62,266 nt of DNA from an uncultured Alphaproteobacteria bacterium (GCA_964010795.1 CAXGMH010000003.1:1-62266); one strand, 5' to 3'. Shown: positions 5,265 to 27,525, numbered from the stretch's first letter. Notes: generated by a model from the letters alone, not told the origin. Numbers and translations: made by a program.

Positions 5265-5311
5265 ATAGTGAGAACCTGTGTTTGAGCGAGAGGGCGCATT
5301 TTGCCCGTTTG

Positions 5312-5436: not shown

Positions 5437-5589
5437 TTTTTATTGCGGTGATTCGTTTTTTGTGCATATATGGTGCCTATGGATATTATTGGACATTACT
5501 ACGCACAACCTTTGATTTCTAAGAAAAACAGGGTTCGTAGCAAAGACAAAACAGAGAATACAAAGAACACATCCTGGGGTGAACAGGAT

Positions 5590-13157: not shown

Positions 13158-13361
13158 CTATTGGCAAAATCCGACGGGCAGGCCGTCGACCTCGGCGGTC
13201 AGGCAAAAGCTTGGGCCTGTGCCGTCAAAAACAGTTTTCTGGATATCGGCCTCAGTTGCTGTCACCTCATCAAGAAGTTTTTCGTATTCAGCCAGTTCGC
13301 GAATAAAATTCAGGATTGTCTGGCTATCGTCTTTGGTGGCTACTCTGTAATTGATCTCCAT
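13158..13361 (-). pseudogene. Truncated GNAT acetyltransferase (spermidine/diamine acetyltransferase-like)
   Basis: IRELAEYEK...AEVDGLPVGF then a stop at 67 aa; acetyl-CoA motif A absent. Confidence 0.7.
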
Positions 13362-14026
13362 TATGCCAGTGTTTTAAAGATCGCCTCAAATAGCTTGCGG
13401 CCGCCTTGCCCTTGATGCGAGCCGACGAGCGCGTTTTCAGGATGAGGCATCATGCCGAGGATTGTTTTACCCTTATTGGTGATGCCGGCGATATCGGCGA
13501 CAGAGCCATTAGGGTTGTCTTTATAGCGGAAAGCGATCTGGTCATTATCCTCAAGACTTTTCAAGCCGTTTTCATCATTGAAATAACAGCCCTCGCCATG
13601 AGCAACGGGAATAGCCGGCAAGATTTCGCCTTTGTCAAACGTCGACAAAAAGCGGTTATCATTGCTGCTTACTTCGAGGTCGACGTGCTTACATACAAAC
13701 TTCAAGGAGCGGTTGCGCATTAAGGCGCCCGGTAGCAAGCCTGTTTCCATGAGCATTTGAAAGCCATTGCAAACTCCGAAAACAGGTGTGCCGCCTTCGG
13801 CTTTTTTAATGACTTCGCGCATGATTGGCGAATGTGCCGCCATAGCGCCACAGCGCAGATAGTCGCCATAGCTGAACCCTCCGGGCAAGATGATAAGATC
13901 AGGATTGCCAAGGTTGGTTTCTTTGTGCCAGACCATTTTTGCGGCTTTGCCCGAAATGTGTTTGACGGCATCGGCCATGTCTTTTTCGCGATTGGTGCCG
14001 GGGAAATGTATAATTGTGATATCCAT
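13361..14026 (-). CDS. purQ: FGAM synthase glutaminase subunit
   Basis: FPGTN, PGGFSYGDYLR, GVCNGFQ, MMPHPE. Confidence 0.97.
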   Translation of the reverse strand: MDITIIHFPGTNREKDMADAVKHISGKAAKMVWHKETNLGNPDLIILPGGFSYGDYLRCGAMAAHSPIMREVIKKAEGGTPVFGVCNGFQMLMETGLLPGALMRNRSLKFVCKHVDLEVSSNDNRFLSTFDKGEILPAIPVAHGEGCYFNDENGLKSLEDNDQIAFRYKDNPNGSVADIAGITNKGKTILGMMPHPENALVGSHQGQGGRKLFEAIFKTLA

Positions 14027-14109: not shown

Positions 14110-14967
14110 ATGAACAAATCCAGACGCACCAAATTATACGAAGGTAAGGCTAAAATCATTTATGAAGGGCCGGAGCCGGGAACAGTTATTCAATATTTCA
14201 AGGATGATGCGACCGCATTTAATGCGAAGAAGCATGACGTGATAGCTGGAAAAGGTGTACTCAATAACCGCATTTCTGCGCATCTGATGACAAAGCTCGA
14301 GGGTGTCGGTATTCCGACGCATTTCTTAAAATCGCTTAATATGCGTGAACAGCTTATCCGCCAATGCGAGATCATTCCAATTGAGGTCGTTGTGCGCACA
14401 CTGGCCGCAGGATCGCTGTCCAAGCGTTTGGGGTTGGCTGAAGGCACGGTTCTTCCGCGTCCGATTATCGAGTTTTATTACAAAGACGATAAGCTCGGTG
14501 ACCCAATGGTCAATGAGGATCACATCACGGCCTTTGGCTGGGCGGATCCGTTTGAGCTGGAGGAAATGATTGCGATGGCCTATCGCGCCAATGATTACCT
14601 TTCCGGTCTGTTTACAGGAATCGGCCTGACGCTTGTTGATTTTAAGCTCGAATTCGGTCGTATTTTCGGTGAGCATGGAGAGCTCTATCTGGTTCTTGCC
14701 GATGAGGTTTCTCCTGATAATTGCCGCCTTTGGGACTCCAATACAGGTGAGAAGATGGACAAGGATCGTTTCCGTCAGGATTTGGGTGGCTTGCTCGAGT
14801 CTTATCAAGAGGTTGCTACCCGCCTTGGTATTGTCCCTCGCGAAGGTATTGTCCAAGAGGGCGGTTTCAACGAAAAACTCGCCGAGTCTCTGGATGAGAT
14901 TGAAAACGAGCTTGCCAAACGCCGCAAGTTGCGCGCTCTTCAAAAAACCAAGCCGAGCAAGCTATAA
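14110..14967 (+). CDS. purC: SAICAR synthase
   Basis: [37 protein letters not shown]. Confidence 0.97.
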
Positions 14968-15003
14968 AATCTTTCCTATCAACGTCAAAACAGAAATTGA
15001 ATC

Positions 15004-15237
15004 ATGAAAGCAATTGTGACTATCAGACTGAAGAACGGAGTTCTTGATCCACAAGGCAAGGCCATTTCCCATGCGTTGGGCGATCTTGGCTTTGAAGGCG
15101 TGCATGGCGCCAGACAGGGTAAAATAATCGAGCTTGATTTGGCTGATGGCGTGTCAGAGGCAGATATCAAACAAATGTGCGAGAAGCTTCTGGCTAACCC
15201 TGTGATCGAGGATTACGAGATACAATGTTTGGCTTAA
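15004..15237 (+). CDS. purS: FGAM synthase subunit
   Basis: GVLDPQG, RQGK, LLANPVIE. Confidence 0.95.
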   Translation: MKAIVTIRLKNGVLDPQGKAISHALGDLGFEGVHGARQGKIIELDLADGVSEADIKQMCEKLLANPVIEDYEIQCLA

Positions 15238-16286
15238 ACCTTTTTAAACGAGGCTCTAATAAGTGGGAAGAGCGCGCGCAAAAAGTTCATGAAAACGGCA
15301 AACGTCTCGCCGGTTTTTATCATGAGAACTATCTGTACAGGTCCAAAGATAACGAGAAATTTCTCTTTCGTTTTCCGATAAAGGGCGCGCCTAATATGGA
15401 TCCGCATTTATTTAAAGAGGCGGATGTTTTACCTTTTGTAGAAAAGCACGGCTTGTCTGCGCCAAAGCTGTTATATCGGGCAAAGGACGATAGCTTTATC
15501 GTGGAAGAGTTTGTCGAGGGAATTTTGGTGGAAACCTCACATCCGGTGGGGCAAGATATGCCTGCCCATGTCTTGGATCAGATTGTCGAATTTTATGCTC
15601 AGACAGCGACGATGACGGACTTTCAGGAGCTGTTTGATAAAAGGCTTGTCAAGGACTGGCCCTCATCCGGTCCTATGGGTGATTTCTTTAAGGCAATTTC
15701 CGATGTATCTCGGGGTGTTTATCAGCAAAATAAAATGCTGAGGGGCAAAGAGCTTGATTATATCGGCATTCCTGAGACGCCGTATCTTCAGATGCAAGAG
15801 ATGGCAAGCTCTCTTTCCAATCGTCCTTGGGTGTTTATTCATTCGGATATGCACCGCGCCAATATGATCGTTGATGGGGATGCTAGGCTTCGTCCGATTG
15901 ACTGGGAGCAGGCTTTGGTCGGAGATTTGGTGTATTGTTTCGCAGTGCATTTGCATATTTCCAGGCATGACGAGCAAATCAAAGCCGATCTGATTAGGCG
16001 TGTTAAAAAAGCGTTACCGAAAAAGTTTCTCGTTGGTTTTGATAAAGACCTTGAGTTCTACCTGACTTATGAAGCTTTGAAATCAATCATCACCGACACA
16101 GTGCGTTTCCCGCAGGCTCTGCGTGAAGAGATGTTCTCGCCCAAGAAAGAGGCTGAGCTTTGTTTATATTATAGTGATAACCTTAAAAAGATTGCGCCAT
16201 TATTCGGCAACAAAACTCCTGATGCCGGAGAAGTTCTCAGGCTTTTCCAGCAATGGGGGGGAAACGCTTTGATTTTATTTGCATAA
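15225..16286 (+). CDS. APH/choline-kinase-fold phosphotransferase
   Basis: HSDMHRAN catalytic loop and IDWE motif. Confidence 0.75.
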   Translation: MFGLNLFKRGSNKWEERAQKVHENGKRLAGFYHENYLYRSKDNEKFLFRFPIKGAPNMDPHLFKEADVLPFVEKHGLSAPKLLYRAKDDSFIVEEFVEGILVETSHPVGQDMPAHVLDQIVEFYAQTATMTDFQELFDKRLVKDWPSSGPMGDFFKAISDVSRGVYQQNKMLRGKELDYIGIPETPYLQMQEMASSLSNRPWVFIHSDMHRANMIVDGDARLRPIDWEQALVGDLVYCFAVHLHISRHDEQIKADLIRRVKKALPKKFLVGFDKDLEFYLTYEALKSIITDTVRFPQALREEMFSPKKEAELCLYYSDNLKKIAPLFGNKTPDAGEVLRLFQQWGGNALILFA

Positions 16287-16330
16287 CGCTATCTTTTCGT
16301 GTTTTATACCCAACAAAGAAGAGGTGATTT

Positions 16331-16558
16331 ATGTTCGAAGAATTTAACGGCTGGATGGATATTAAGCGTAAAGGGAAGTCAAAAGGGAAGCAGATTTTAG
16401 TGGCAGAATTTACCTTAAGTTCGGGAGAGATCAAGCGTTATGGCTCCAATGCGTTGGATAACCTTCTTAAATGCCCACCTCAAAATTTCACTAATGCAGA
16501 CCGCGAATTGGTTGATTTTGCCCAAAGGAGCAAAACCGGAGTGACTCTTAGTCGGTAA
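16331..16558 (+). CDS. Small hypothetical protein
   Basis: GAGGTG RBS directly upstream of a 75-aa ORF. Confidence 0.55.
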   Translation: MFEEFNGWMDIKRKGKSKGKQILVAEFTLSSGEIKRYGSNALDNLLKCPPQNFTNADRELVDFAQRSKTGVTLSR

Positions 16559-17330
16559 ATTGTTCTTTTAAGATGCGCTCTTCCAGAGAATGTCCCGGAT
16601 CAAATAAGAGGGCGCGTTCTTTGGATTTATTCAACGATATTTCAACGCTTTTGACATCTCGTATTTCTGTGTAATCCGCTACAGCCGAAACAGGTCGCTT
16701 TTCCGCTTCGAGGATGTCAAAACGAATATGCGCATCAGAGGGTAGGAGGGCGCCGCGCCAACGTCTCGGGCGAAACGCGCTGATCGGGGTGAGCGCCAGA
16801 ACATCAGATCGTAAAGGAATAATCGGACCGTGTGCTGAGAGGTTATAGGCTGTTGATCCGGCAGGGGTGGAGACTAGAGCTCCGTCACAGATCAATTCTT
16901 CCATTCGCACAACGTTATCGACAGCAATCTGAAGCTTTGCGGCTTGTCGTGATTCCCGCAGCATAGAAACTTCGTTATAAGCGCGAGCTGTATGTTTTTC
17001 GCCCATCGTGGTCTCAACAACCATTTCCAGTGGGAAAAGAGAGACCTTGCGTGCTTTGTCCAGTCGTTCGGGCAGGTCATGCCCATCACGAGGATTAAGA
17101 AGAAATCCGACAGAGCCATAGTTGACACCATAAAAGGGGATGTCTAGAGCTTCGTATTTATGCAAGGATTCAAGCAGGAATCCATCTCCGCCCATCACAA
17201 TGACGGCATCAGCGTCCTCAGGCTTGTGCTCACCGAAACGATTTTTGAGCGCAATCACATCATGGAATGCTTGCTCATCATCTGCGGCAAGGAAGCTCAG
17301 TTTTTCGAAGTTGTGTGAAGATTGTCCCAT
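16548..17330 (-). CDS. nadK: NAD kinase
   Basis: GGDG, G-GFL, NE, DGxxxSTPAGSTAYNLSAHGP. Confidence 0.95.
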   Translation of the reverse strand: MGQSSHNFEKLSFLAADDEQAFHDVIALKNRFGEHKPEDADAVIVMGGDGFLLESLHKYEALDIPFYGVNYGSVGFLLNPRDGHDLPERLDKARKVSLFPLEMVVETTMGEKHTARAYNEVSMLRESRQAAKLQIAVDNVVRMEELICDGALVSTPAGSTAYNLSAHGPIIPLRSDVLALTPISAFRPRRWRGALLPSDAHIRFDILEAEKRPVSAVADYTEIRDVKSVEISLNKSKERALLFDPGHSLEERILKEQFTD

Positions 17331-17337
17331 AAAAATG

Positions 17338-18042
17338 TTACGAGGCTGATTGTTCTTCGGATTTACCGCCATGGTCGATCGACCACTGAACCGGATTTTT
17401 CAAAAAGCTCTCGACGGCCTCCAATGTTTGCGGCTCGAAATAGGATAGAGATGAGGCAACATCCAGAACGTTCCACCATGTCGTCAAAGCGTGAAGCTTT
17501 ACCCCCATCTCGGCCATGTTCTTCTCGCTTTGTTCGAAAATACCGTAATGAAATAAGACAAAAGAATGTTCTACTATTGCGCCCGCTTTGCGCATGGCAT
17601 CAATAAATACTTTTTTTGATCCGCCATCGGTCTGAAGGTCTTCGATCAGGACAACATTTTGGCCTTCCTCGAAATGTCCTTCGATCTGTGCCATGCGGCC
17701 AAAGCCTTTTGGCTTCTTACGCACGTAAAGCATAGGGAGGTCAAGGCGGTCTGATAGAAGTGCCGCGTAGGGAATACCGGCAGTTTCACCGCCTGCAAGT
17801 GCGTCCATCGTCTCATATCCAATATTGCGGCAAAGGGTTGCTGCGGCGAAATCCATGAGTGCGGCTCTGGCGCGCGGGAAGGAAATAAGACGGCGGCAGT
17901 CAATATACACAGGGCCGACGCGACCTGATGTATATGTGAACGGTTCTTCTGCGTTAAAGAGGATGGATTTTGTTTCTAGTAAAATCTTGGCTGTCTCAAC
18001 GGAAATTGCGCCCTGATCGAGAAATGAGGTTTGTAAGGCCAT
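17338..18042 (-). CDS. pyrE: Orotate phosphoribosyltransferase
   Basis: SGRVGPVYIDCR, YVRKKPKGFG, VLIEDLQTDGGS. Confidence 0.92.
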   Translation of the reverse strand: MALQTSFLDQGAISVETAKILLETKSILFNAEEPFTYTSGRVGPVYIDCRRLISFPRARAALMDFAAATLCRNIGYETMDALAGGETAGIPYAALLSDRLDLPMLYVRKKPKGFGRMAQIEGHFEEGQNVVLIEDLQTDGGSKKVFIDAMRKAGAIVEHSFVLFHYGIFEQSEKNMAEMGVKLHALTTWWNVLDVASSLSYFEPQTLEAVESFLKNPVQWSIDHGGKSEEQSAS

Positions 18043-18123
18043 GTAAGAACTCTCCTATGGGATCTGGTTTACCCTTTATCGAAAAACCCATTGCATGAGT
18101 CAAGGGATAAAGGGGGAAGGCAG

Positions 18124-18798
18124 TTATTGTGTGACCCAGACAATGCGGGCAATAAGGCAATCGGGTCCGGGGTGAAGTAATTCCTGTTTATCAGTCTCAT
18201 GCGGAAGGCAAGATGTAACGAGTACGTGTTGTCCGTCACGCCTTATAACCTGACGAATAGAGCTTGCGCGTCCTTCTCTCGTGGGGCGGTTGACAATGAT
18301 ACGGTCGCCGGGCTGATAGGTTGCTTTGGGCGAAATGATGAGGCGGTCGCCGCTGCGATAGATTGGCTCCAGAACATCGGAGTCCATTTCAATCGCAAAC
18401 AAATGCGGGTCGCCAATGTCGCGTGCTGAATGGAAGACCATCCGCGTCCAATTTTGATCTGGCTGGGGGCGGCCGTTATCTTTGAACCAGTTCGGTTCGA
18501 TTCTCTTGCGGATTAAGCTGAGGCTGATTACGGGGATATCGGTTCTGGCCTGCGTGGCCTCGACGTCCTCTTCGTTATTGAGAGAGAGTAAATCAACCAG
18601 CGTCATGTTTGTGACAGCAAGAATTTTGGCGATACTTTCGGTTGAGGGCCAGCGCGGTTTGCCATCAGGGCTTAAACGTTTGCTTTTGTTAAAAGCGGTG
18701 GGGTCGAGGCCGGCTTGTTTAGCAAGGCCGGATGTTGAATACCCGCATTTACGTGCGAGCGAGTCTATGGCTGTCCATATTTCCTCATGTGTGAACAT
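18124..18798 (-). CDS. HTH + degenerate S24-peptidase repressor (alphaproteobacterial COG2932 type, possibly RogA-like)
   Basis: THEEIWTAIDSLA...SGLAKQAGLDPTAFNKSKR...RWPSTESIAKIL; C-terminal YRSGDRLII...IARIVW; start 18798 or 18810. Confidence 0.8.
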   Translation of the reverse strand: MFTHEEIWTAIDSLARKCGYSTSGLAKQAGLDPTAFNKSKRLSPDGKPRWPSTESIAKILAVTNMTLVDLLSLNNEEDVEATQARTDIPVISLSLIRKRIEPNWFKDNGRPQPDQNWTRMVFHSARDIGDPHLFAIEMDSDVLEPIYRSGDRLIISPKATYQPGDRIIVNRPTREGRASSIRQVIRRDGQHVLVTSCLPHETDKQELLHPGPDCLIARIVWVTQ

Positions 18799-18828
18799 TA
18801 AACTGCTCATCCTTCCCGTTTTTTGTTC

Positions 18829-18969
18829 TGAGATTATATTCCCACGATTCATCTGAAACTGCAAATAAAAGGGTTACAGAGGGATCAACTAATAAATAGG
18901 AATATAGTCTTAAAAAAGGGCTTGACAATGAGAACAAAATAGAACATTATGTAGAACATAAACAGAACA
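18829..18969. promoter_or_regulatory. Divergent control region: two palindromic operators, sigma70 promoter, LexA-type box
   Basis: TGAGATTATATTCCCA 18829-18844; TAGGAATATAGTCTTA 18897-18912; TTGACA 18922-18927 with CATTAT 18945-18950; four AGAACA units including GAAC-N7-GAAC at 18954-18968. Confidence 0.65.
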
Positions 18970-19010
18970 AAACCGTTTAAACCATAATTAAAGACATGAA
19001 AGGACGCGCA

Positions 19011-19520
19011 ATGTCAGAGCGGCATCACGGCCCCTATGAAGACGACCATATCGGCGAAGCTTTTGAAACTGTTGAGGCTTTGTGGTTTTGGTTTATGGCT
19101 GCCAATGAGGCGATGCGTTCCGGGGCACGATATTCTGCTGGCCGCGGAGATAAAGTGCGTCCATGTGAGCCGGTTGACGTGATCCGCATAGTGGAGCGTC
19201 TTTATCGGTCCCGTATGCTTAAGATCGACCATTTGCGTGTGATGAGGCATTACGGATTACGCAAAAGCGCACCGGATCCGTATGTCGCTCGTGAGGCAAG
19301 AGCCGCAAAAATCTGGGATGAGGCAATGGATAAGCTTTACCCCGTATTGCTCCGTAAAAAATTGGTGGAGCCGCGCCCGTCAACACTTGCAGAATGGCCT
19401 CAGGCACTCAAAGAACAGGCGCTGGCTCGGGCAGAGGAAATCGGGCGCTGGGCAAAGTCGGGCACACAAAGCAATCAAGATAATTTTTCGCTAAAATCAA
19501 TTGAAGGAGGATTAGCATGA
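19011..19520 (+). CDS. Hypothetical protein, first gene of the phage-like operon
   Basis: AAAGGA RBS; WFWF and RPCEP motifs; helical C-terminus. Confidence 0.75.
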   Translation: MSERHHGPYEDDHIGEAFETVEALWFWFMAANEAMRSGARYSAGRGDKVRPCEPVDVIRIVERLYRSRMLKIDHLRVMRHYGLRKSAPDPYVAREARAAKIWDEAMDKLYPVLLRKKLVEPRPSTLAEWPQALKEQALARAEEIGRWAKSGTQSNQDNFSLKSIEGGLA

Positions 19521-20041
19521 CACAGGAAAATGTGAACCAAAATAATACAGAGTTAAAAGCATGGGTTGTTTTTCGTGACAAAACCGAACTTGGCATTTTA
19601 AAGCCGCTCAAACGAGGTTTTCGCCACTGCTTTGTGATTTTAAATGATGGCAAGCGCTGGATTTCGGTGGACCCGCTGTCCAATCATATGGATGTGCTTG
19701 TTCATGACCTTGATCCTGATTTTGATTTGCCGGGCTGGATGGCTGAGCGTGATTGCACGGTATTAGCCGCGCCGATCGCACGTGATAAAATGTGTATGGC
19801 ACCGATCTTGCCGTTCAGCTGTGTCGAGGCCGTTAAACGGGTTTTGGGTATTCATGCATGGCATATCCTGACCCCTTATCAACTCTATTCTTACCTGCAG
19901 CGGCGCCAGTTTGTATTCGCTGCACCTTCAACTACACAAAAATTAAAGGAGATATTTTATGGGTGGCGTTATATCCGCAGCATCAAAAATTCCGTCCGTC
20001 AGGACAGCGCAAACGCATATCAACACGGCGCGTATAGCTGA
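19517..20041 (+). CDS. Phage-associated hypothetical protein with His/Cys motifs
   Basis: GGAGG RBS, overlaps upstream stop; FRHCFV, SCVEAVKRVLGI, TPYQLY. Confidence 0.75.
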   Translation: MTQENVNQNNTELKAWVVFRDKTELGILKPLKRGFRHCFVILNDGKRWISVDPLSNHMDVLVHDLDPDFDLPGWMAERDCTVLAAPIARDKMCMAPILPFSCVEAVKRVLGIHAWHILTPYQLYSYLQRRQFVFAAPSTTQKLKEIFYGWRYIRSIKNSVRQDSANAYQHGAYS

Positions 20042-20243
20042 TCCGGCAACTACATCAGCTGAAACACAAGACGAAGATAATGAAGTGGTGGGTCAGGGCA
20101 ATAACGCACAGGACAATGATGAGCGCAATCTTTTGACATTCACGCCAAGGCGCGGGCGCAGCTCTACTATTCGTACGTCTTTGCGCGGATTACTTGAACG
20201 CTCAGACGCCATACCACAAAGAAAATCTCTTTTAGGAGAATAA
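19959..20243 (+). CDS. Small pre-portal virion protein
   Basis: AAGGAG RBS; MGG start and RKSLLG end resemble small genes preceding podoviral portals. Confidence 0.65.
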   Translation: MGGVISAASKIPSVRTAQTHINTARIADPATTSAETQDEDNEVVGQGNNAQDNDERNLLTFTPRRGRSSTIRTSLRGLLERSDAIPQRKSLLGE

Positions 20244-20247
20244 TTCC

Positions 20248-21774
20248 ATGACAGTAAAAACTCTTATCGCACCCGCCTCATCCGAGGACGGGGCGATGAT
20301 CCATGCCTTGCATAAAGCGCAACAACAGGCGCGCAGCAAACGCGACCGATGGGTGGGCTTGTGGCAGGAATGCTATGATTACGCCTTGCCGCAACGTGAT
20401 AGCTTTTATGGGTTTGACCATGCCGGACAAAAGCGCAGTGACCATCTTTATGACGGCACGGCAATGGATAGTGTCGATCAGCTAGCCGCAAGTCTTTTGG
20501 CTGAACTGACACCGCCTTGGAGCCAATGGTTCGGTTTCAAGCCCGGCTTTGCGCTCAGTAAAGATGAAGCGGAAACGATTGCACCTAAGTTGGAGAATAC
20601 TGCACAAATCATGCAAACACATTTTGACCGATCGAATTTTGCAACCGAGATACATCAATGTTTTCTTGATCTTGTTACCGCAGGGACGGCCTGTCTGTAT
20701 TTTGATCGTGCCGCTACGGGCGCTATGACGGCTTTTCGTTTTGAGGCAGTGCCTCTTTCACAAGTGGCGATAGAGCAAAGCGAGAATGGCAGCATGGATA
20801 TCACTTATCGATACCGCAAGATCAGTGCCGGCCAGATTCAAAATGATTTTGTGCAGGCGGAATTGCCGCAAGAACTGGTCGCTAAAGCTCTTAAATCCCC
20901 GGATACAGTATTCGAGGTGATTGAAGTTGTGCAGCCGGAGGGGCTGGCTTACCGCAAAATATGTTACTTGCCACAGTTTGTCGATAAGGGCGGTGAGGCT
21001 GCAATATTGTGCTCGCAATTGTTGCAATCAAGTCCCTATATTCATTTTCGCTGGCAGAAAAGCCCGGGTGAGATTTATGGACGTTCTCCGGTGATGAAGG
21101 CTTTGCCGGATATTAAAACAGCGAATAAAGTTGTTGAGCTTGTTTTGAAAAACGCATCGATTTCGGTGACGGGAATTTGGCAGGCCGATGATGATGGTAT
21201 CTTAAATCCTGCCAACATTGACCTGAGGCCCGGAACAATTATTCCAAAGGCAGTCGGGTCGCAAGGGCTGACACCATTGGAAATGCCTGCGCGTTTTGAT
21301 GTGTCCGAGCTTGTTTTGTCGGATTTACGGGCGCGTATCCGCAAAAGCCTTATGGTGGATCGCCTTGCTCAAATCGAAGAGCGGCAAATGACAGCGACAG
21401 AAGTTTTAGAGCGTGCTCGTGAGATTGTGCGGCTTCTGGGCGCAACATATGGGCGTTTGCAATCCGAGCTCTTAACCCCGCTTATCAGGCGCGGATATGA
21501 TTTGTTGCGCGCCAGAGGGGAGATTGCCGATCTTGCGCTTGACGGTCGTTATGTTGCGCTTGATTATCGTTCACCCATGGCGCGTGCGCAACAGCAATTA
21601 TCGGTTCAAAATACATTGAACTGGCTGAGGTCTGCGACCGAGCTTGGCGCAAAAGCCAGTGAGGCGATAGATGTGCCCGAGGCCGTCCGGCATATGGGTG
21701 AAGCCTTGGGTGTGCCGTCACATCTGATCCGCCGCGAGCTTCTTGATAAAGGAGGCGAGAATGCAACGTCCTAA
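20248..21774 (+). CDS. Portal / head-to-tail connector (T7 gp8-like)
   Basis: YDGTA, LAASL..LTPP, RWQKSPGEIYGRSP, ALPDIK, MTATEV, GRLQSE. Confidence 0.92.
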   Translation: MTVKTLIAPASSEDGAMIHALHKAQQQARSKRDRWVGLWQECYDYALPQRDSFYGFDHAGQKRSDHLYDGTAMDSVDQLAASLLAELTPPWSQWFGFKPGFALSKDEAETIAPKLENTAQIMQTHFDRSNFATEIHQCFLDLVTAGTACLYFDRAATGAMTAFRFEAVPLSQVAIEQSENGSMDITYRYRKISAGQIQNDFVQAELPQELVAKALKSPDTVFEVIEVVQPEGLAYRKICYLPQFVDKGGEAAILCSQLLQSSPYIHFRWQKSPGEIYGRSPVMKALPDIKTANKVVELVLKNASISVTGIWQADDDGILNPANIDLRPGTIIPKAVGSQGLTPLEMPARFDVSELVLSDLRARIRKSLMVDRLAQIEERQMTATEVLERAREIVRLLGATYGRLQSELLTPLIRRGYDLLRARGEIADLALDGRYVALDYRSPMARAQQQLSVQNTLNWLRSATELGAKASEAIDVPEAVRHMGEALGVPSHLIRRELLDKGGENATS

Positions 21775-22012
21775 GTTTTTTGATTTTTTGACGCAGATAC
21801 CATTCGGCCAAAAGCCAGCAGAGATAGAGCGATGTTTTGCCAAAGTTTTTCTGTCTACGGATGGGCGACAGGTTTTGCGCTATTTGCATCAAACCATAAC
21901 AGCCAGAGCTTTGCCTGCTGATTGTTCGACGGAAATGCTGCGCCATCAAGAAGGACAACGTGCTTTGCTTCAAATGATATTGCGCATGACTGAACGTGGT
22001 AGCGCAGAGTAA
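21761..22012 (+). CDS. Small post-portal protein (Bbp19-like)
   Basis: FLSTDGRQVL...LRHQEGQR; AAGGAGG RBS. Confidence 0.7.
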   Translation: MQRPKFFDFLTQIPFGQKPAEIERCFAKVFLSTDGRQVLRYLHQTITARALPADCSTEMLRHQEGQRALLQMILRMTERGSAE

Positions 22013-22051
22013 TACTTTAAACCTCATCTAAACAAAAGGAGATACCCCCTC

Positions 22052-22744
22052 ATGAGAGATGAAACCTTATCCAATGAAACTCAAAGTCAGGAACAGATGC
22101 TCAAAGTGCCTGAGAAATTTATTGATCCTGAAAGTGGTGAAATTCGCCTTGACGCACTGGTGAAATCCTATCGGGCATTAGAGACGAAGCTTTCACAAGC
22201 GCCGAGTGCTTCGGCAAAGCCAGAAACGGCGGAAGAATATAAGGCCAAAGTCAATCCCGGTTTGCTTGAGTTTGATGATGAGCTCAATGCTAAGCTTTTT
22301 GAGCGAGAGTTCACTGCTGAACAAGTGCAAACAATTTATGATCTGGCTGGCGAATACCTCATCCCGATGTTTGCGAAGATGCGCGCCGAGTTTGAGGCTG
22401 ATCGTGATCTGGAGCGCCTTATCGAGCATTTCGGCGGGGCTGAGAAATGGCAAGAAGTTTCTCGTCAATTATTCAATTTTGGACAAAAGACATTGCCGCA
22501 ATCCGTTTTTGAAAATCTGGCTAGCTCGTATGACGGTGTCATGGCGCTTTATAAAATGATGGGGCAAGAGGGTACGCAAAATGTATCTCCACAAATGGCG
22601 GAGCCGACGACGGAAAATGATTCTCAAGGGCTTCAGTCTATGATGCGTGACCCTAAATACTGGAAGGAACGCGATCCGGCCTTTATTGCCAAAGTCACAC
22701 GTGGTTTTGAACGTCTTTATGGAGACAGTGCGAAGGCGGAGTAG
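22052..22744 (+). CDS. Capsid scaffolding/assembly protein
   Basis: VPEKF, KSYRALE, acidic helical body, C-terminal DPKYW..DPAF..KV; position between portal and capsid. Confidence 0.8.
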   Translation: MRDETLSNETQSQEQMLKVPEKFIDPESGEIRLDALVKSYRALETKLSQAPSASAKPETAEEYKAKVNPGLLEFDDELNAKLFEREFTAEQVQTIYDLAGEYLIPMFAKMRAEFEADRDLERLIEHFGGAEKWQEVSRQLFNFGQKTLPQSVFENLASSYDGVMALYKMMGQEGTQNVSPQMAEPTTENDSQGLQSMMRDPKYWKERDPAFIAKVTRGFERLYGDSAKAE

Positions 22745-22773
22745 GGGTGAAAACTCTTACTTATCGGATTTGT

Positions 22774-23151
22774 TTAGCCGAATTGTTGGTTGGTGGCGTC
22801 TGTGACGACATCGCGAAAGGCTGTTTCAGCCTCTCCGGGAAGTGCGTCAAATTGTAGGGCAATACGTGATTTTGTTGTGCGCAAAATCTTGGCAGAGTGG
22901 GACACATCAAGAACACGGTTGCTGAGGCGGAACTTGATTGTGAAATCAACGGCTTCACCGGTTTGGAATTGTCGGCCTTGTGCTTCGATCTGGGCGCCAC
23001 CCATTGACCAGTCAACAACCGGATATTGTGTTCCATCAACGACAATGACGCAGGTGTCCTGAGATCGACGCTCACTTTGGCGGCGTGCAGATGGACCGTC
23101 ATCATTCGATACGGTTTTCATGAATTGATCCCAAGATTTTTTGAAGTGCAT
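22774..23151 (-). CDS. Single-domain PilZ protein
   Basis: RRQSERR (RxxxR) and DWSMGG (DxSxxG) motifs; GAGGA RBS. Confidence 0.85.
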   Translation of the reverse strand: MHFKKSWDQFMKTVSNDDGPSARRQSERRSQDTCVIVVDGTQYPVVDWSMGGAQIEAQGRQFQTGEAVDFTIKFRLSNRVLDVSHSAKILRTTKSRIALQFDALPGEAETAFRDVVTDATNQQFG

Positions 23152-23225
23152 TTCAGTCCTCGCTCAATTGAATATGGTAACTGTACTAAATTTTTCGAAA
23201 AATCACAAATTTAATAATTATTTTC

Positions 23226-23255
23226 TTGACAATATAGGATTTTATTCCCAATAAT
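23226..23255 (+). promoter_or_regulatory. Capsid promoter with operator in the spacer
   Basis: TTGACA 23226-23231; TAGGATTTTATTCCCA 23235-23250; AATAAT 23250-23255. Confidence 0.65.
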
Positions 23256-23263
23256 GGTCGAGC

Positions 23264-23293
23264 AAAGGCCGGGAGTGTATCTCGGCCTTTTTT
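23264..23293 (+). terminator. Intrinsic terminator in the capsid leader
   Basis: ggccggga-gtgta-tctcggcc hairpin followed by tttttt. Confidence 0.7.
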
Positions 23294-23436
23294 CATTTTG
23301 CGGAAAACAGCAAGATTTAAAGCTGCCCGCACACAACGTTTTGAGTAAAAGCTTTGGCCCTTAATTTTACAGGACAACCGCGCTTTTCTTTCCCCTCATT
23401 TGAAAAAACTTTTAACCCAGAAAGGAAAGACGAAGG

Positions 23437-24969
23437 ATGTCTTCACTCTCTAATGCTTTTGTAAAGCAATTCGAACGCGAGGTGCATGAAGCCTATCAAA
23501 GACAAGGCTCCAAGCTTCGCGGTTCGGTCCGTATCGCAAGCGATGTACAAGGCTCAACAGCCGTATTCCAGAAAATCGGCAAAGGCACAGCCTCGACGAA
23601 ATCAACGCATGGCATGGTGCCTGTGATGAATCTTGACCACACAGCCGTTGAGGTTGATCTGGAAGATTACTATGCCGGTGACTGGGTGGATCAGCTTGAT
23701 ACACTTAAGGTCAATCATGATGAGCGTGCTGTGATCGCGAATGCGGGTGCTTATGCGCTTGGACGTAAAACGGATGAGCTTATCATCAACGCAATGGCGG
23801 CGGGTGCAACGTTATCTGTCGATGATGACACGACTGGTTTGACACTGGCCAAAGTTCTGGAAGCCTTTGAAATGCTCGGTGAGAACTACGTTCCCGATGA
23901 CGGCAATATAACAGGCAGCCGTGCCGATATTGTTATTTGCGATGATGTCGAAGTTCCGCGCACCAGCGACACTGCCGGCAAGCGTGAAGATTTGCGCTCA
24001 AAACTTGATGAGGCGAGCTATGTGTTGACCCCGCAAGGGACACAGATTTATGTCGGCACACCGCACCATTATTACTCAATCTATGCTGATGAGCCACGGC
24101 AAGAACTGGGTGAAGACAAAAGCTACCTTACGGGATATCAGTGCCTTGTGTTGCCGATTTTGACTGAGGCCGGCAAGTCTCAATGGCCGGAGCGTTTCTC
24201 GCGAGAAGCGATCAATCAGCTCAAACAAAATACGGGGCCAATGAAGTTCCGGTCCCAGATGATGCTAGAGCCGGTCAATATCGCCGAAAGCCGACTTGAT
24301 CCGAAGCTTCTTCATTTTTATGAGGCGGATTTGAACGTTGATTATAGTGCGACACGCAAACGACTGTTTATCGAAAGCGATGAAATTTTGAGTATGAGTA
24401 GCTATTGGGATCCAGCCTTTGGTCATTCTGCCTCGGCGAAGCAGAAACGAGATGGCTCTGTCTTCGCTCTTGTGTTGCTCGGGCAAAGCGGGAGGCGGTA
24501 TTTGCATGATTTACGCTATTTGAAGGTTGAAGTCGGGCAAGGCGATGAAGCCAGTCAGCAAGTGAGGCAGATTTTTAAACTCTGCACACATTACGGCTTG
24601 CGGCGTGTTGCTATTGAAATTAATGGGATTGGCCGTTTTCTACCCGGTATCTTAAGACAGACGATAAAGGTTGAAGGTTTGCGTTGCTCGGTCGAAGAGG
24701 TGGTATCAAAAACAGCGAAAGATATCCGAATTTTAGAAGGCTTTGATGCTCTATTGGCTGCCCGTGCGCTTTATGTGCATCGCTGTGTGACCAAAACACC
24801 GTTTGTCACGGAAATGCAGGAGTGGGCGCCGCATGGTGCAAGCAAAGCCCATGATGACGGGCTAGACGCGGTGGCTGGCGCTTTGGCGAGGCTACCGCAG
24901 CAAGGTGTACGGTTGTCGCGTAAGGAGCAGGCGCTTCGCCTGCGTGAAACGGATTTTAGTGTTTTTTAA
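23437..24969 (+). CDS. In-frame chimera: major capsid N-terminus (aa 1-156) + terminase large subunit C-terminus
   Basis: Capsid motifs FVKQF..EVH.AYQ..GSKLR and ALGRKTD up to VPDDG; then terminase motifs NITGSRADIVICDDVE, YVGTP, YWDPAFG, HDDGLDA. Confidence 0.85.
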   Translation: MSSLSNAFVKQFEREVHEAYQRQGSKLRGSVRIASDVQGSTAVFQKIGKGTASTKSTHGMVPVMNLDHTAVEVDLEDYYAGDWVDQLDTLKVNHDERAVIANAGAYALGRKTDELIINAMAAGATLSVDDDTTGLTLAKVLEAFEMLGENYVPDDGNITGSRADIVICDDVEVPRTSDTAGKREDLRSKLDEASYVLTPQGTQIYVGTPHHYYSIYADEPRQELGEDKSYLTGYQCLVLPILTEAGKSQWPERFSREAINQLKQNTGPMKFRSQMMLEPVNIAESRLDPKLLHFYEADLNVDYSATRKRLFIESDEILSMSSYWDPAFGHSASAKQKRDGSVFALVLLGQSGRRYLHDLRYLKVEVGQGDEASQQVRQIFKLCTHYGLRRVAIEINGIGRFLPGILRQTIKVEGLRCSVEEVVSKTAKDIRILEGFDALLAARALYVHRCVTKTPFVTEMQEWAPHGASKAHDDGLDAVAGALARLPQQGVRLSRKEQALRLRETDFSVF

Positions 24970-24974
24970 AACTT

Positions 24975-25153
24975 AAGGGCATGACCGTGCCCCGCCGATA
25001 GTGCGGTGAAAGGCTTTATGTGATGCGTTCAGTCGCCACGCAGGCTTTTCACGAAACCGTTCGCGGCCGACGGTCGTCGGCTTGACCCGAGACCAAGGGC
25101 GCGACTGCGCCCCGCCGACAGTTCGGCGAAAGGCTTAGCGCCGTTTGAGCGTA
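24975..25153. repeat. Structured palindromic repeat: one partial and one near-full copy
   Basis: 25025-25153 aligns with 42945-43073; 24975-25016 duplicates its 3' hairpins. Confidence 0.85.
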
Positions 25154-25173
25154 TAATTTAAAGGAGAATAGAA

Positions 25174-25689
25174 ATGCCATATCAAGGATTTAGACCGACA
25201 TTAACGCCGAAAGTCCTCCCTTTGGTCCCGCGTCAAAAAGACGCACTGCAAGATCGTAGCCCTCTGACTGCTCTTGAGGTTGATATACTTGCCCGTACGA
25301 TCTGGGGGGAAGCTCGAGGTGAGGGGAAGACAGGCATGGAGGCCGTAGCCTGTGTCATTCTTAATCGTCATAAGCGCGCAAAAGAGGTAGGTGGATATTG
25401 GTGGGGTAACACAGTGATCGAGATTTGCCAGAAGCCTTATCAGTTTTCTTGCTGGAATAAAAGTGATCCCAATCGCGGAAAGCTTCTATCCGTGTCTGAA
25501 GATAACCCCTATTTTGCAACGGCTCTTCGTATAGCGAGACGTGCTTTGCTTGGCGTGCTTAGCGATATAACCAAAGGAGCGACACACTATCATACGCAAA
25601 GTGTTAAGCCTTATTGGATGCGTTATATGGACGTGATGGCACATATCAATAATCATATTTTTTACAAAGAAAAGAGCGGTGCGGCATGA
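25174..25689 (+). CDS. SleB/Hydrolase_2 cell-wall hydrolase (endolysin)
   Basis: LARTIWGEARGE, AVACVILNR, QFSCWN, DITKGATHYH, HIFY. Confidence 0.92.
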   Translation: MPYQGFRPTLTPKVLPLVPRQKDALQDRSPLTALEVDILARTIWGEARGEGKTGMEAVACVILNRHKRAKEVGGYWWGNTVIEICQKPYQFSCWNKSDPNRGKLLSVSEDNPYFATALRIARRALLGVLSDITKGATHYHTQSVKPYWMRYMDVMAHINNHIFYKEKSGAA

Positions 25690-26186
25690 TCTCGTCTCTT
25701 TTGACCCAGATTAGTTTTCCGGCTATTTTAGATATTATTGCGAAAATACTGGACCGTGTTGGTGATGAGCGTGCCGCTAAAGCGTCTGAAACGGTTAAAG
25801 AGGTTGAGCATATCTTGCGCCGAGAAGATGTTCCGGAACATAAAAGACAGACACTGGATGCCGAATTTACAGCCTTGATTAAGGAAAGACTGGATCATGA
25901 TGCACGGCGTCTTGAGACGGTGAATGCGTCTTTGCGTGCGGAGGTCGCGTCACAGGATATCTATGTGCGGCGAATGCGTCCGACTTTTGGTTATCTGATG
26001 GCTGTGACATGGACGGCGCAAATGCTGGCTATTGCTTATCTCTTGGTTTTTCAAACAGATAAGGCCGCGCTGGCTATTGAATCCGTTGAGAGTTTAGGCA
26101 CGATTTGGGCTGTCGCGTTATCTGTTTTGGGGATTTATGTGTATAAACGCTCGGAGGATAAAAAAAGGGCTCCTTATCTGAGATAG
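25686..26186 (+). CDS. 3TM holin (GTA_holin_3TM-like)
   Basis: RRMRPTFGY, two C-terminal TM helices, LGIY..KRS.DK; overlaps the endolysin stop. Confidence 0.8.
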   Translation: MISSLLTQISFPAILDIIAKILDRVGDERAAKASETVKEVEHILRREDVPEHKRQTLDAEFTALIKERLDHDARRLETVNASLRAEVASQDIYVRRMRPTFGYLMAVTWTAQMLAIAYLLVFQTDKAALAIESVESLGTIWAVALSVLGIYVYKRSEDKKRAPYLR

Positions 26187-26193
26187 TCTAGAC

Positions 26194-27525
26194 ATGATTC
26201 CTGCTTTGCTTCATACTTTCACAAATGATTTTCAACAAAAGGAAATTTGTCGCGTGAATAAACCAATCCGAAAGATTTTTTCCCAAACTGGAAATATGGT
26301 TGATGTTGCCAAAGGGTTTTTCAAGCTCGAGGCTGCGGGCGGAATTGTACTGGTCATAGCAGCGATTGTTGCGATGCTTATCGCCAATACAAGTCTTTAT
26401 GGTATTTATAATTACTTCCTCAATGAAATCGACTTTACGATCGGTTTTTCTGATAAGGCTGACCTCAACCTTTACATCGGAAAGCCGATTTTACTCTGGA
26501 TTAATGACGGCTTGATGGCCGTATTCTTTTTCCTTGTCGGTCTTGAGATAAAACGTGAATTTCTGGAGGGCGAATTATCGAGTAAGGATCGGGCTTTGCT
26601 GCCTGCTATTGTCGCGGTTGGTGGGATGGCTGCACCGGCGGCGATCTTTTATTTTATTAATCAGCATACGCCTCAATATATGCCTGGCTGGGCTATTCCT
26701 GCCGCGACGGATATTGCATTTGCGCTTGGGATTATGGCGCTTTTGGGGTCGCGTGTTCCTCTGGCCGCTAAAGTGCTTTTAACTGCGATTGCAATTATTG
26801 ATGATCTTGGTGCTATTTTGATTATCGCTTTGTTTTATACCGCAGATGTAAAAGTCATGGCACTGGTCGTGGCATTTGTAGCACTTTTGATGCTCGGCGC
26901 ACTCAACCGTTCAAAAGTATGCAATATCACACCTTATATTTTAATCGGGACAATCATGTGGATTGCGGTCTTGAAGTCAGGCGTTCACGCAACGCTTGCC
27001 GGTGTTGTCACGGCCTTGTTCATCCCTATGCGTAGCGACACAAGAGAAGGCTTTTCTCCTGTTAAACATTTGGAGCATACGTTGCATCCATGGGTGGCTT
27101 TTATGATTTTGCCGATCTTTGGTTTTGCCAATGCTGGAATTTCTTTTGCCGGCATGACGCCCGAGGAAATGTTTACGCCGCTTAGCCTCGGGATAGCTGC
27201 TGGTCTTTTCTTTGGAAAACAGATCGGTATTTTTGTGCCGCTTGTCCTTCTTATTAAGTCGGGCATATTTAAAATGCCAAAGCGCTGTAACTGGTGGCAT
27301 TTATACGGTGTTGCGTTACTTTGTGGTGTTGGCTTTACCATGTCACTTTTTATTGGCGGTCTGGCTTTTGACACACAAGACAACGCGGCTGCTGTGCGGA
27401 TCGGTGTTATTATGGGGTCTGTGTGCTCGGGAATTATCGGTTTTCTGGTTTTACGATTTGCGCCCTCAAAGATGTCAAAAGATGCGCGTAAAGTAGAAGT
27501 GAAAGCTAAGAACGTATCTGTTTAA
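26194..27525 (+). CDS. nhaA: Na+/H+ antiporter
   Basis: WINDGLMAVFF, GWAIPAATDIAF, AIIDD, SGVHATLAG, GVGFTMSLFI; true start may be downstream. Confidence 0.95.
   Translation: MIPALLHTFTNDFQQKEICRVNKPIRKIFSQTGNMVDVAKGFFKLEAAGGIVLVIAAIVAMLIANTSLYGIYNYFLNEIDFTIGFSDKADLNLYIGKPILLWINDGLMAVFFFLVGLEIKREFLEGELSSKDRALLPAIVAVGGMAAPAAIFYFINQHTPQYMPGWAIPAATDIAFALGIMALLGSRVPLAAKVLLTAIAIIDDLGAILIIALFYTADVKVMALVVAFVALLMLGALNRSKVCNITPYILIGTIMWIAVLKSGVHATLAGVVTALFIPMRSDTREGFSPVKHLEHTLHPWVAFMILPIFGFANAGISFAGMTPEEMFTPLSLGIAAGLFFGKQIGIFVPLVLLIKSGIFKMPKRCNWWHLYGVALLCGVGFTMSLFIGGLAFDTQDNAAAVRIGVIMGSVCSGIIGFLVLRFAPSKMSKDARKVEVKAKNVSV

Follow-up and report, generated by a model that had tools for sequence, protein, structure and literature searches.

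A defective copy of a conserved podovirus-derived element beside pyrE in an uncultured alphaproteobacterium, and its intact relatives as candidate gene transfer agents

The stretch of DNA described here, called the window in the following, comprises 62,266 nucleotides from an uncultured Alphaproteobacteria bacterium (GCA_964010795.1, CAXGMH010000003.1:1-62266) and carries at positions 18124 to 26186 a cluster of phage-type genes, which starts with a divergently oriented repressor gene, continues with genes for a T7-type portal and scaffold and ends with a lysis cassette (Table 1). The cluster is likely to be a defective copy of a conserved, domesticated podoviral element, the intact relatives of which would encode a particle system resembling either the gene transfer agents (GTAs) or the Bacillus element PBSX. 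It is these relatives, and not the window copy, whose gene content makes them good candidates for a new kind of GTA.

The cluster is bordered by ordinary host genes. On the left, pyrE (17338-18042, minus strand) abuts the repressor gene rep, with purC, a kinase-like gene and nadK completing the flank; on the right, nhaA begins at 26194, 7 bp past the stop codon of the holin gene, and icd belongs to the same flank. No tRNA gene was found in the whole 62-kb window, and a repeat search at the cluster borders returned only short chance repeats and no direct repeats resembling attachment (att) sites. An anomaly in GC content or another compositional break was not seen at the cluster, no integrase family was detected among the open reading frames (ORFs) of the window scanned against Pfam and PHROG, and the window cluster contains no tail genes. 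A preliminary description of this DNA, made from the sequence alone, had reported a cluster that abuts pyrE and nhaA, contains a PilZ gene and is devoid of att repeats, tRNA, integrase, polymerase, primase and helicase genes. All of these statements hold; the cluster consists only of the genes listed in Table 1, and integrase and replication genes were also not found in the relatives examined. Its gene list stands as well, except that the entry 'capsid/terminase' does not denote two genes but one 510-aa deletion chimera. The 'host-style promoters' of that description could be retained in part: promoter-like sites in the window cluster are not more frequent than expected by chance (14 versus 10.5 +/- 3.5 in shuffled sequences), and neither promoter nor terminator scan counts exceed those of shuffles, but two of the sites are nevertheless conserved promoters equipped with an operator.

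Table 1. Genes and control sites of the podovirus-derived cluster in the window
Feature	Position	Strand	Assignment and remarks
Repressor (Rep)	18124-18864	-	N-terminal DNA-binding part and degenerate LexA/CI-type S24 domain; phrog_4 transcriptional repressor, E 4.5e-9; Peptidase_S24 PF00717, 22.6 bits, under the 23.3 cut-off
rep/hyp1 divergent control region	18865-18995		Operator-like palindrome 18896-18913; promoter-like sites on both strands
Promoter-like site in rep/hyp1 region	18922-18950	+	TTGACA-17-CATTAT
Promoter-like site in rep/hyp1 region	18928-18901	-	
hyp1	18996-19520	+	Element-specific helical protein; no Pfam, PHROG or NCBIfam family
hyp2	19517-20041	+	Element-specific alpha/beta protein; no Pfam, PHROG or NCBIfam family
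Small pre-portal ORF, 94 aa	19959-20243	+	No family
T7-type portal (head-tail connector), intact	20248-21774	+	PF12236, E 7.1e-130; phrog_332, E 1.3e-105
Bbp19-like small protein	21743-22012	+	PF25181, E 3.1e-11
T7-type scaffold (capsid assembly) protein	22052-22744	+	PF05396, E 3.8e-11
PilZ-domain protein	22774-23151	-	PF07238, E 1.9e-9
Promoter of capsid-tail-packaging-lysis operon	23226-23255	+	TTGACA-18-AATAAT, 11/12 positions; palindrome 23234-23251 between the hexamers
Leader hairpin and T-run in promoter/capsid gap	23264-23290	+	Intrinsic-terminator-like; 11-pair stem
Capsid/terminase ORF, 510 aa	23437-24969	+	
Major capsid protein, N-terminal 156 residues (truncated)	23437-23904	+	PF19821 (Phage_capsid_2), positions 2-174 of 293
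Large terminase, residue 136 to end, in-frame fusion	23905-24969	+	phrog_38, positions 396-716 of 760; Terminase_6C
Two 42-nt hairpin-forming direct repeats	24975-25016, 25095-25136		Between terminase stop and endolysin
SleB-type cell-wall hydrolase (endolysin)	25174-25689	+	PF07486, E 6.7e-20; phrog_938 endolysin, E 3e-24
Holin, GTA_holin_3TM family	25686-26186	+	PF11351, E 2.4e-10

The 510-aa ORF is composed of two truncated genes, with residues 5-157 matching the capsid family and residues 156-499 the terminase family. The fusion was mapped with G001, the closest relative with an intact cluster and a member of the same family as the window genome. Positions 23440-23904 are 82% identical to residues 3-157 of the 277-residue G001 capsid protein, and positions 23905-24897 are 53% identical to residues 136-470 of its large terminase (TerL, 502 residues). 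The similarity to the capsid stops and that to the terminase starts exactly at 23904|23905, where the two parts are joined in frame (...VPDDG|NITGSRADIVICDD), and a deletion of roughly 7 kb would have connected capsid residue 156 to terminase residue 136. The G001 TerL sequence FRSCGKST (residues ~47-54), which reads like a Walker A motif, falls into the part that is missing from the window terminase; the Walker A region and the start of the ATPase thus seem to be absent from the window protein. The window genome (1.95 Mb in 105 contigs, rated 100% complete) was searched by tblastn using G001 queries, and neither the tail tubular proteins A and B nor the 84-, 167- and 124-aa proteins have a match in it, whereas capsid and TerL have one match only and no second one, and the tailspike body matches only a different gene located on contig C29. 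Compared to a complete head, tail and packaging set, the window genome is hence short of capsid residues 157-277, both tail tubular proteins, the adaptor part of the spike and the first 135 residues of TerL; tubular proteins A and B and a gp17-like spike N-terminus, absent from the window genome, are present in relatives. Rep has degenerated, too. In an alignment of 66 members of the Rep family, the motifs QAG, G.SM.P and K, which stand for the Ala-Gly cleavage site, the Ser nucleophile and the Lys general base, are at least 90% conserved, while the window protein has LIRKR, DSDVLEP and R at these places; it thus retains none of the three motifs of LexA/CI self-cleavage, and its PF00717 score remains below the cut-off. 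Since the capsid remainder, the tail genes and the Walker A region of TerL are found nowhere in the genome and Rep is degenerate, the window copy should not be able to make particles: from its gene content, it is predicted to produce neither capsids nor tails, to be incapable of packaging DNA and to be non-functional.

Contig C29 of the window genome (G000) harbors at its end a second phage-like module (~16300-23600; locus L216 6312-13574), which corresponds to a siphovirus-type tail tip and encodes a distal tail protein, a tail hub, a DUF6950 protein, a J-like fibre, a 436-aa unknown protein, a 164-aa protein (phrog_3108) and a pectate-lyase-like beta-helix protein with 43% identity to the tailspike body of G001. 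Two different particle systems in related hosts may share a receptor-binding domain. The two 42-nt repeats downstream of the terminase stop codon (family D1) are 83% identical and lie 120 nt apart, and public contigs differ at this zone by a 48-nt skip from 25065 to 25114 and by alternative continuations or loose ends at 25152/25153; strains differ at the repeat zone. Some stretches, for example 25171-25321, had no contig cover in this comparison.

Two explanations compete with the view that the window copy itself is defective. The capsid-terminase fusion could be an artefact of the assembly of this metagenome-assembled genome (MAG), a suspicion that is nourished by the distribution of the genome over 105 contigs and by sequencing run X2, in which two contigs end or begin within 16 nt of the joint and do not span it by 31 nt or more. 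This is highly improbable: a 962-nt Logan contig of run X1 covers 23421-24382 including the joint without a single difference, although X1 is possibly the source sample of the genome assembly, and the contig therefore supports the joint without being independent proof; the two X2 contigs each reach 7-9 nt past the joint; the reading frame is maintained across the joint, which lies exactly where the similarity to the G001 capsid ends and that to the terminase begins; the missing genes are found nowhere in the assembly; and similar deletions are present in three other genomes or contigs. The second explanation, according to which the window locus is a working GTA whose missing parts are supplied from elsewhere, for example by the tail module of C29, is almost certainly wrong. 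The remaining ORFs of the window copy are all open, and C29 does offer a tail-tip module and a beta-helix protein resembling the G001 spike body. However, a full capsid, tubular proteins A and B and a TerL Walker A region exist nowhere in the genome, the C29 module is of the siphovirus type and has no T7-type adaptor N-terminus, and the cleavage motifs of Rep are lost, so that the gene content already contradicts this possibility.

The intact form of the element can be found in related genomes. The portal search was positive for 24 of 41 related genomes, and up to 32 kb around the portal gene were fetched in 17 of them; together with the window, these gave 18 composites, which were mapped by tblastn using the window and G001 proteins. 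Eleven of the 18 Micavibrionales composites contain the full gene set in one piece, two more contain it in split loci, and the intact element has a size of ~15-17 kb. In intact relatives, a left operon with hyp1, hyp2, the small ORF and the genes for portal, Bbp19-like protein and scaffold lies between rep and the oppositely oriented PilZ gene, and the right operon consists of genes for the capsid, a protein of ~80 aa, both tail tubular proteins, up to three (at least one) small proteins, the spike, a protein of ~120 aa, TerL, endolysin and holin. In G024, for instance, rep, hyp1, hyp2, the small ORF and the genes for the portal, the Bbp19-like protein and the scaffold, as well as the PilZ gene on the opposite strand, are followed by genes for a full-length PF19821 capsid, an 81-aa protein (phrog_18004), tubular protein A (phrog_394) and tubular protein B (phrog_376), by three small ORFs, one of which encodes a peptidoglycan-binding domain, and by the gene for a tailspike of 674 aa, which combines an N-terminal part similar to fibres of the T7 type (phrog_1640) with a pectate-lyase-like body. 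An ORF of 123 aa, the gene for a large terminase of 499 aa and the lysis genes for endolysin and holin complete the cluster, which is then followed by icd. The module of T7-type portal (PF12236), scaffold (PF05396) and capsid (PF19821) is present in this element family, with half a capsid in the window and a full one in relatives. Genes for an integrase, excisionase, polymerase, primase or helicase were not found in the clusters of the relatives examined. The C-terminal ~30 residues of the small pre-portal ORF were recovered just 5' of the portal gene in many relatives (tblastn).

The structure of the cluster varies between relatives. In G012 (L030 12418-12927), capsid residue ~85 is joined to endolysin residue ~73, with the holin gene, nhaA and icd lying beyond; in L062 (~13168-13500), icd follows after capsid residue ~59; and in L136 (3756-5137), an IMG/VR contig from a close relative of G001, capsid residue 129 is joined to spike residue 346. 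These three deletions are independent, all of them start inside the capsid gene like that of the window, and inactivation is recurrent at this one gene. In G010 (L025/L044, composite ~14900-18300), capsid and 84-aa protein are followed by ~3.5 kb without a tblastn match before the holin gene is reached; replacement or strong divergence of the tail and terminase module may account for this. The gap between the scaffold and capsid genes is a hot spot for insertions (L075 12455-15221, L050 12398-14407, L079 12569-18823), and a further insert in L120 (16429-20296) is located elsewhere, namely between the small post-capsid ORF and the gene for tubular protein A. The inserts code for proteins of 450-670 aa with peptidoglycan-binding domains, for a GH108-like protein and for an ODP-family protein with a metallo-beta-lactamase fold, and no integrase or replication families were found in the 10 ORFs scanned from inserts within the cluster. 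In some genomes, nothing of the element lies 3' of the scaffold gene, and the capsid and terminase genes are located elsewhere. This is the case in G016 (L132), whose left half resides on a 735-kb contig and whose intact capsid-to-holin half resides on a 1.3-Mb contig, in G018 (L133/L134) with the halves on different contigs, and in G330 (L055/L135), where the halves lie ~75 kb apart on one 284-kb contig, the left one retaining pyrE and the right one ending at nhaA. The cluster is split between the scaffold gene and the PilZ and capsid genes, and both halves are intact. In five Magnetospirillum-type genomes (G325-G329), the capsid gene is likewise found away from the portal neighborhood, and in four of them this also applies to the terminase gene. 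A gene set under host control can endure such a separation into two remote parts, but a viral genome cannot, and the split loci therefore speak against a virus.

With regard to its distribution, a portal match at E <= 1e-80 was obtained for 234 of the 320 genomes of the order, and the carriers are designated 'Micavibrio sp.' or unclassified Alphaproteobacteria MAGs. A single match per genome is the rule with few exceptions, and at least four genomes carry a portal gene with one in-frame stop codon. When the families of the order are numbered f1 to f8, the portal is present in 210 of 237 genomes of f6, 13 of 15 of f5, 7 of 10 of f3, one of three of f4 and both genomes of f1 plus the window, and absent from f7 (0/9), f8 (0/42) and f2 (0/1); within the five families that have the element, it thus occurs in 233 of 267 genomes (~87%). 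Portals with 52-59% identity are also encoded by Magnetospirillum, Paramagnetospirillum, Phaeospirillum, Skermanella, Telmatospirillum, Defluviicoccus, Terasakiella and Thalassospiraceae, and nearly all of these Rhodospirillales-type loci show the same gene order, rep(-)-hyp1-hyp2-portal-scaffold-capsid. The pyrE gene abuts rep in 14 of the 18 composites, the exceptions being three f3/f4 genomes with other flanks and one contig end, and nhaA and/or icd lie within a few kb 3' of the holin gene in 12. Among 80 named loci, 20 have the pyrE-nadK left flank. Grouping 57 named loci by their left flanks gave 16 groups; the largest comprises 17 Micavibrio-type loci, and another one unites 12 loci of Telmatospirillum, Defluviicoccus, Thalassospiraceae and Terasakiella. 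In Magnetospirillum molischianum and 'Terasakiella sp. PR1', genes for a chemoreceptor, SecDF, a Na/H exchanger, a FabI-like protein, a pyridoxal phosphate-dependent enzyme, GTP cyclohydrolase I and TrkH are found left of rep. Genes for FlhA/FlhF and a NUDIX protein are among those located 3' of the lysis genes in four genomes, and dihydroorotate dehydrogenase is encoded there in both Skermanella and Telmatospirillum. In six Rhodospirillales sensu lato genomes, the cluster is flanked by host genes, and no integrase or replication genes are present at these sites.

IMG/VR contains 282 stretches with the hyp2 signature, which are listed as viral or proviral. Nearly all of the 80 IMG/VR loci that were kept have the same gene order, a few being rearranged or partly deleted, and many of the proviral records are 15.5-19.6 kb long and start at rep. 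The best match to a portal of a cultured phage among 50,697 phage records has 35.5% identity (Pelagibacter phage EXVC031P), while the bacterial copies are 50-64% identical to each other. The only record of the phage collection above 36% portal identity is L131, a fragment of 5084 bp that stems from a human faecal virome and is filed as 'UNVERIFIED Bacteriophage sp.' (GenBank MT838907.1); it has the gene order of the element and carries the small ORF and genes for a portal (53% identity), a Bbp19-like protein, scaffold, capsid, an 84-aa protein and tail tubular proteins A and B.

Several lines of evidence connect the history of the element to that of its hosts. In a FastTree portal tree with 96 rows, f1, f5 and f6 form one clade of 41 rows (support 95) and the Rhodospirillales sensu lato another one of 51 rows (support 99), with four f3/f4 rows on long branches; by this measure, the portal tree separates host orders and families. 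The synonymous divergence (dS) between L058 and L124 is 0.65 for the portal and 0.55 for the scaffold gene, compared to 0.47 for pyrE, 0.47 for purC and 1.00 for nadK, and between G012 and G023 it is 1.21 for the portal and 1.24 for the capsid gene, compared to 0.87 for pyrE and 1.03 for purC. A host tree based on pyrE, nadK and purC (807 columns) and an element tree based on portal, scaffold, the capsid N-terminal part, hyp1 and hyp2 (1284 columns), each comprising 22 taxa, have 10 of 19 splits in common, all of them well supported, whereas 2000 label permutations yielded a mean of 0.26 and a maximum of 3. An attempt to correlate pairwise identities of element and host gave Spearman coefficients of 0.02-0.64 with saturated identities and was replaced by the dS and tree comparisons. 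The ratio of nonsynonymous to synonymous divergence (dN/dS), determined by the method of Nei and Gojobori (NG86) for up to 18 pairs, lies between 0.01 and 0.3 for every element gene in pairs with unsaturated dS, just as it does for the host genes at the flanks; this includes portal, scaffold, capsid, tubular proteins A and B, spike and TerL and also holds for Rhodospirillales-type pairs. These comparisons demonstrate vertical inheritance of the element along with the host chromosome as well as purifying selection on it. The preliminary description had proposed a vertically inherited, domesticated podoviral particle system and a search for the repressor-portal-scaffold-capsid synteny together with a comparison of portal and host trees and of dN/dS. 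For the element family, its proposal is strongly supported by site, dS, trees and dN/dS, and the synteny is shared by carriers in the Micavibrionales and nearly all Rhodospirillales-type loci; for the window copy with its deletion and degenerate Rep, it has to be given up. Three of the observations that it had named as arguments against itself, namely patchy distribution at variable sites, integrase or replication genes in relatives and relaxed selection, were not made: the site is conserved, no such genes were encountered in the relatives examined, and selection is purifying. The authors of that description did not recognise the system as a characterised one, and we also found no account of such an element in Micavibrionales or Rhodospirillales in the full-text literature searched outside subscription journals.

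The control sites are conserved along with the genes. A 16-bp palindrome, TAGGAAT-NN-ATTCCTA, is present in the rep/hyp1 gap of 16 of the 18 composites (at most two mismatches). The same palindrome recurs inside a promoter located 170-330 nt 5' of the capsid gene, where the -35 and -10 hexamers enclose it. It was detected there in 31 of 38 loci of the Micavibrionales (at most three mismatches); 29 of the 31 have a -35-like hexamer just 5' of it, and the promoter appears as a conserved block in alignment A3. It is retained by the split-off capsid operons of G016, G018 and G330, and found at the capsid promoter of only one of 29 Rhodospirillales-type loci. Three palindromes (18896-18913, 23234-23251 and 5311-5328) were found in the window, compared to 0.22 expected. 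The third one (GTAGGATTTTAATCCTAT) is located 13 kb from the cluster between a 92-aa ORF (4986-5264, minus strand) and a 111-aa ORF (5470-5805), for neither of which an informative family was found, and could be a distant member of the operator regulon or a chance match. The leader hairpin between promoter and capsid gene occurs at the same place in relatives, where the stem sequence differs and the structure is kept; a strict script detected it in 17 of the 31 loci with a palindrome. An Rfam scan of 17900-26400 returned a single sub-threshold match over the hairpin, Termite-leu, which was rejected (22.2 bits versus a gathering threshold of 51, E 0.33). Promoter, protein-binding element within it, leader terminator and late genes are also the constituents of the Q-dependent late promoters of lambdoid phages, and the layout of the capsid operon suggests, by analogy, antitermination by a product of the left operon. 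As the LexA-type motifs are kept in the Rep family, the ancestral trigger was probably RecA-stimulated self-cleavage of Rep. Several lineages, including G001, G024 and G019 and further loci of f6 and f1, keep only the DNA-binding part of Rep (~80-100 aa), and in G024 (L017 3382-4293) this part and pyrE form one open frame of 303 aa.

The candidate for such an antiterminator is hyp1, which is present in all relatives (alignment A2). Its AlphaFold2 model is helical (predicted local distance difference test score, pLDDT, 84.5), and the structural neighbors in the Atlas are sigma-70 region-4-like helix-turn-helix proteins with template modelling scores of 0.56-0.61, and a Q-protein (Q21) cluster was hit at a chance-level value of 0.80. 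These weak likenesses to sigma region 4 and Q21 provide a lead, and only a lead, towards a transcription factor or other small helical regulator. In hyp2, residues R36, H37, C38 and C102 are invariant in 31 sequences from two orders (alignment A1) and look like a catalytic or metal site; the top fold matches of its AlphaFold2 model (pLDDT 80.6), which are non-significant, are the thiol peptidases vasohibin (E 0.24) and a viral deubiquitinase, and as a lead only, hyp2 may resemble a small thiol enzyme. Searches of hyp1 and hyp2 against the PDB gave nothing below E 0.2 with profiles and nothing at E <= 0.001 with Foldseek, and NCBIfam had no family for 10 proteins including hyp1, hyp2 and the small ORF. 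With all of these searches being null and the Atlas providing leads only, family names for hyp1 and hyp2 were dropped. Position and strand of the PilZ gene agree between families f1, f5 and f6. The translated window gene contains RRQSERR and DWSMGG, which we take to match the RxxxR and (D/N)xSxxG motifs of cyclic di-GMP (c-di-GMP) binding, so that domain and motifs give the predicted protein the features of a c-di-GMP receptor.

In intact carriers, Rep most likely binds to the 16-bp palindrome in both promoters, and its inactivation, by autocleavage where the LexA-type motifs are kept, would de-repress both of them and lead to expression of the left operon. With the help of a left-operon product, for which hyp1 is the candidate, RNA polymerase would then pass the leader terminator and transcribe the capsid-tail-terminase-lysis operon. 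Assembly would yield short-tailed particles with T7-like heads and a spike that cleaves polysaccharides. As the element has no function for excision, the terminase would fill these heads directly from the chromosome. The packaged DNA may be random, as in a GTA, may begin at a site within the element in the manner of lateral transduction, or may play no part in the benefit, as in killer particles. Particles would finally be released by lysis depending on holin and endolysin.

Other explanations for the element as a whole have to be considered. Ordinary temperate podoviruses might have integrated repeatedly next to pyrE and decayed, leaving the window copy as a remnant without function for the host. 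The phage-typical structural genes, the 282 IMG/VR stretches listed as viral or proviral, the common internal deletions and the 5-kb fragment from a faecal virome are what one would expect in this case. Such a history is very unlikely, though, given that no copy examined has an integrase, att site or replication genes, that 233 of the 267 genomes of five families carry the element and usually once, that element dS equals that of the host flanks with largely congruent trees and dN/dS of 0.01-0.3, that clusters split over ~75 kb or over contigs retain both halves and the operator, and that the portals of cultured phages all have at most 35.5% identity. An active phage of an unconventional kind, either temperate or co-diverging with its host, is also quite unlikely; its replication and integration functions would have to be hidden in hyp1, hyp2 and the small ORFs or borrowed from the host. 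Three to six conserved proteins are without assignable function, the arrangement of repressor, operator and lysis genes is prophage-like, and a T7-sized head would have room for an element of 16 kb, but a fixed site, flank-like dS and retained split loci are at odds with a genome that needs to be excised and packaged as a unit, and hyp1 and hyp2 look, as far as the leads go, like a regulator and a thiol enzyme rather than a polymerase or recombinase. It is less improbable, but still unlikely, that the particles are beneficial for a reason other than gene transfer, either as PBSX-like killer particles or as a lysis or public-goods device, with packaging being incidental. Control by a LexA-type repressor, the own lysis cassette, a tailspike with a polysaccharide-lyase fold and the lack of recognised large ejection proteins would suit such a role, whereas purifying selection on portal, scaffold, capsid and terminase alike implies that DNA-filled heads matter.

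The preferred reading, a domesticated podoviral element that encodes a GTA-like or PBSX-like particle system in intact relatives and is defective in the window, has to cope with several points that weigh against it. Internal deletions are frequent (G000, G012, L062, L136), and selection is thus not uniform. The dS values are near saturation in many pairs, and two splits of the host tree (support 98 and 99) and one split of the element tree (support 98) conflict between the two trees, pointing to possible exchange between relatives. Most of the genomes are MAGs, in which the presence of genes was judged chiefly from tblastn searches based on two sets of queries. The large internal core proteins of T7 are gp15 and gp16; no such proteins were recognised between tubular protein B and the spike, where only small ORFs are located, and the tail may work differently from that of T7. 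Particle production and DNA packaging are predicted from gene content only, and an activity in replication or recombination could be concealed in hyp1, hyp2 and the small ORFs.

The best-known systems for comparison are the RcGTA-type GTAs (Rhodogtaviriformidae), to which RcGTA, DsGTA and CcGTA belong. Like these, the element consists of a phage-derived set of head, tail, packaging and lysis genes without integration or replication genes, is inherited vertically under purifying selection and may be distributed over several loci under common control, and its holin belongs to the family that is named for a GTA holin (PF11351). In contrast to the structural genes of RcGTA, which are siphoviral and of the HK97 type, those of the element are T7-type podoviral. 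RcGTA is controlled by CtrA and GafA, whereas the element appears to be controlled by an adjacent LexA/CI-like repressor with its own operator. Furthermore, packaging and transfer of random host DNA have been demonstrated for RcGTA, while the element is known from its genes alone. The genomic hallmarks of GTAs, namely absence of integrase and replication genes, vertical inheritance and purifying selection, are nevertheless present in the element family. T7-like and HTVC010P-type phages, with EXVC031P as the closest cultured representative, and BPP-1-like temperate podoviruses share the structural gene families with the element; the Bbp19-like protein is named after BPP-1. The T7 order of genes for portal, scaffold, capsid, tail tubular proteins A and B, fibre or spike and terminase is also that of the element. 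Unlike these phages, the element has a portal of at most 35.5% identity, is located at a fixed chromosomal site and is devoid of RNA polymerase, DNA polymerase, primase/helicase, integrase and recognised large core proteins. PBSX of Bacillus is a chromosomally fixed, repressor-controlled element, which lyses its producer and releases particles containing host DNA, and is myovirus-like and found in Bacillota; the element would resemble it in being a fixed, repressor-controlled, phage-like element and would differ from it in not being myovirus-like.

A GTA-like element of Faecalibacterium prausnitzii, FpGTA, has been judged podovirus-like and organized in two loci, and a short-tailed GTA is therefore no longer unprecedented. 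Compared by description, FpGTA and the element are alike in these two features and differ in that FpGTA belongs to Bacillota and is backed by packaging data. According to Shakya et al. 2017 (PMC5721377), RcGTA-like clusters in Rhodospirillales and Micavibrio are small only, large ones being absent; the lineages reported to be without large RcGTA-like clusters are hence the ones that carry the element described here. Moreover, c-di-GMP affects the production of RcGTA according to a further study (PMC9756655). It is possible, although rather less likely than not, that the element constitutes a second, independently domesticated lineage of alphaproteobacterial GTAs, which is built from a T7-like podovirus, occurs in deep-branching lineages, namely Micavibrionales and, within the Rhodospirillales, the group of Magnetospirillum, Skermanella, Defluviicoccus, Telmatospirillum and Thalassospira, and combines a LexA-like repressor with its own operator, Q-like antitermination, a c-di-GMP receptor in Micavibrionales and filling of heads from the unexcised chromosome, with the capsid deletions, that of the window among them, representing 'cheater' alleles.

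Few GTAs have been studied in detail. Relatives of the element occur in the cultivable genera Magnetospirillum, Paramagnetospirillum, Skermanella and Telmatospirillum, the circuit of repressor, operator and leader terminator is compact and directly testable, and natural loss-of-function alleles as well as split-locus variants offer material for comparison. Hundreds of 'proviruses' in IMG/VR are probably fixed chromosomal elements and not mobile phages. If the preferred reading is true, a T7-type particle system would have been kept for apparently the whole history of an order and would provide a second independent case for the question of why bacteria keep a lethal, DNA-packaging trait; if the cheater reading is true as well, the capsid deletions would be non-producer alleles of a trait that kills its producer.

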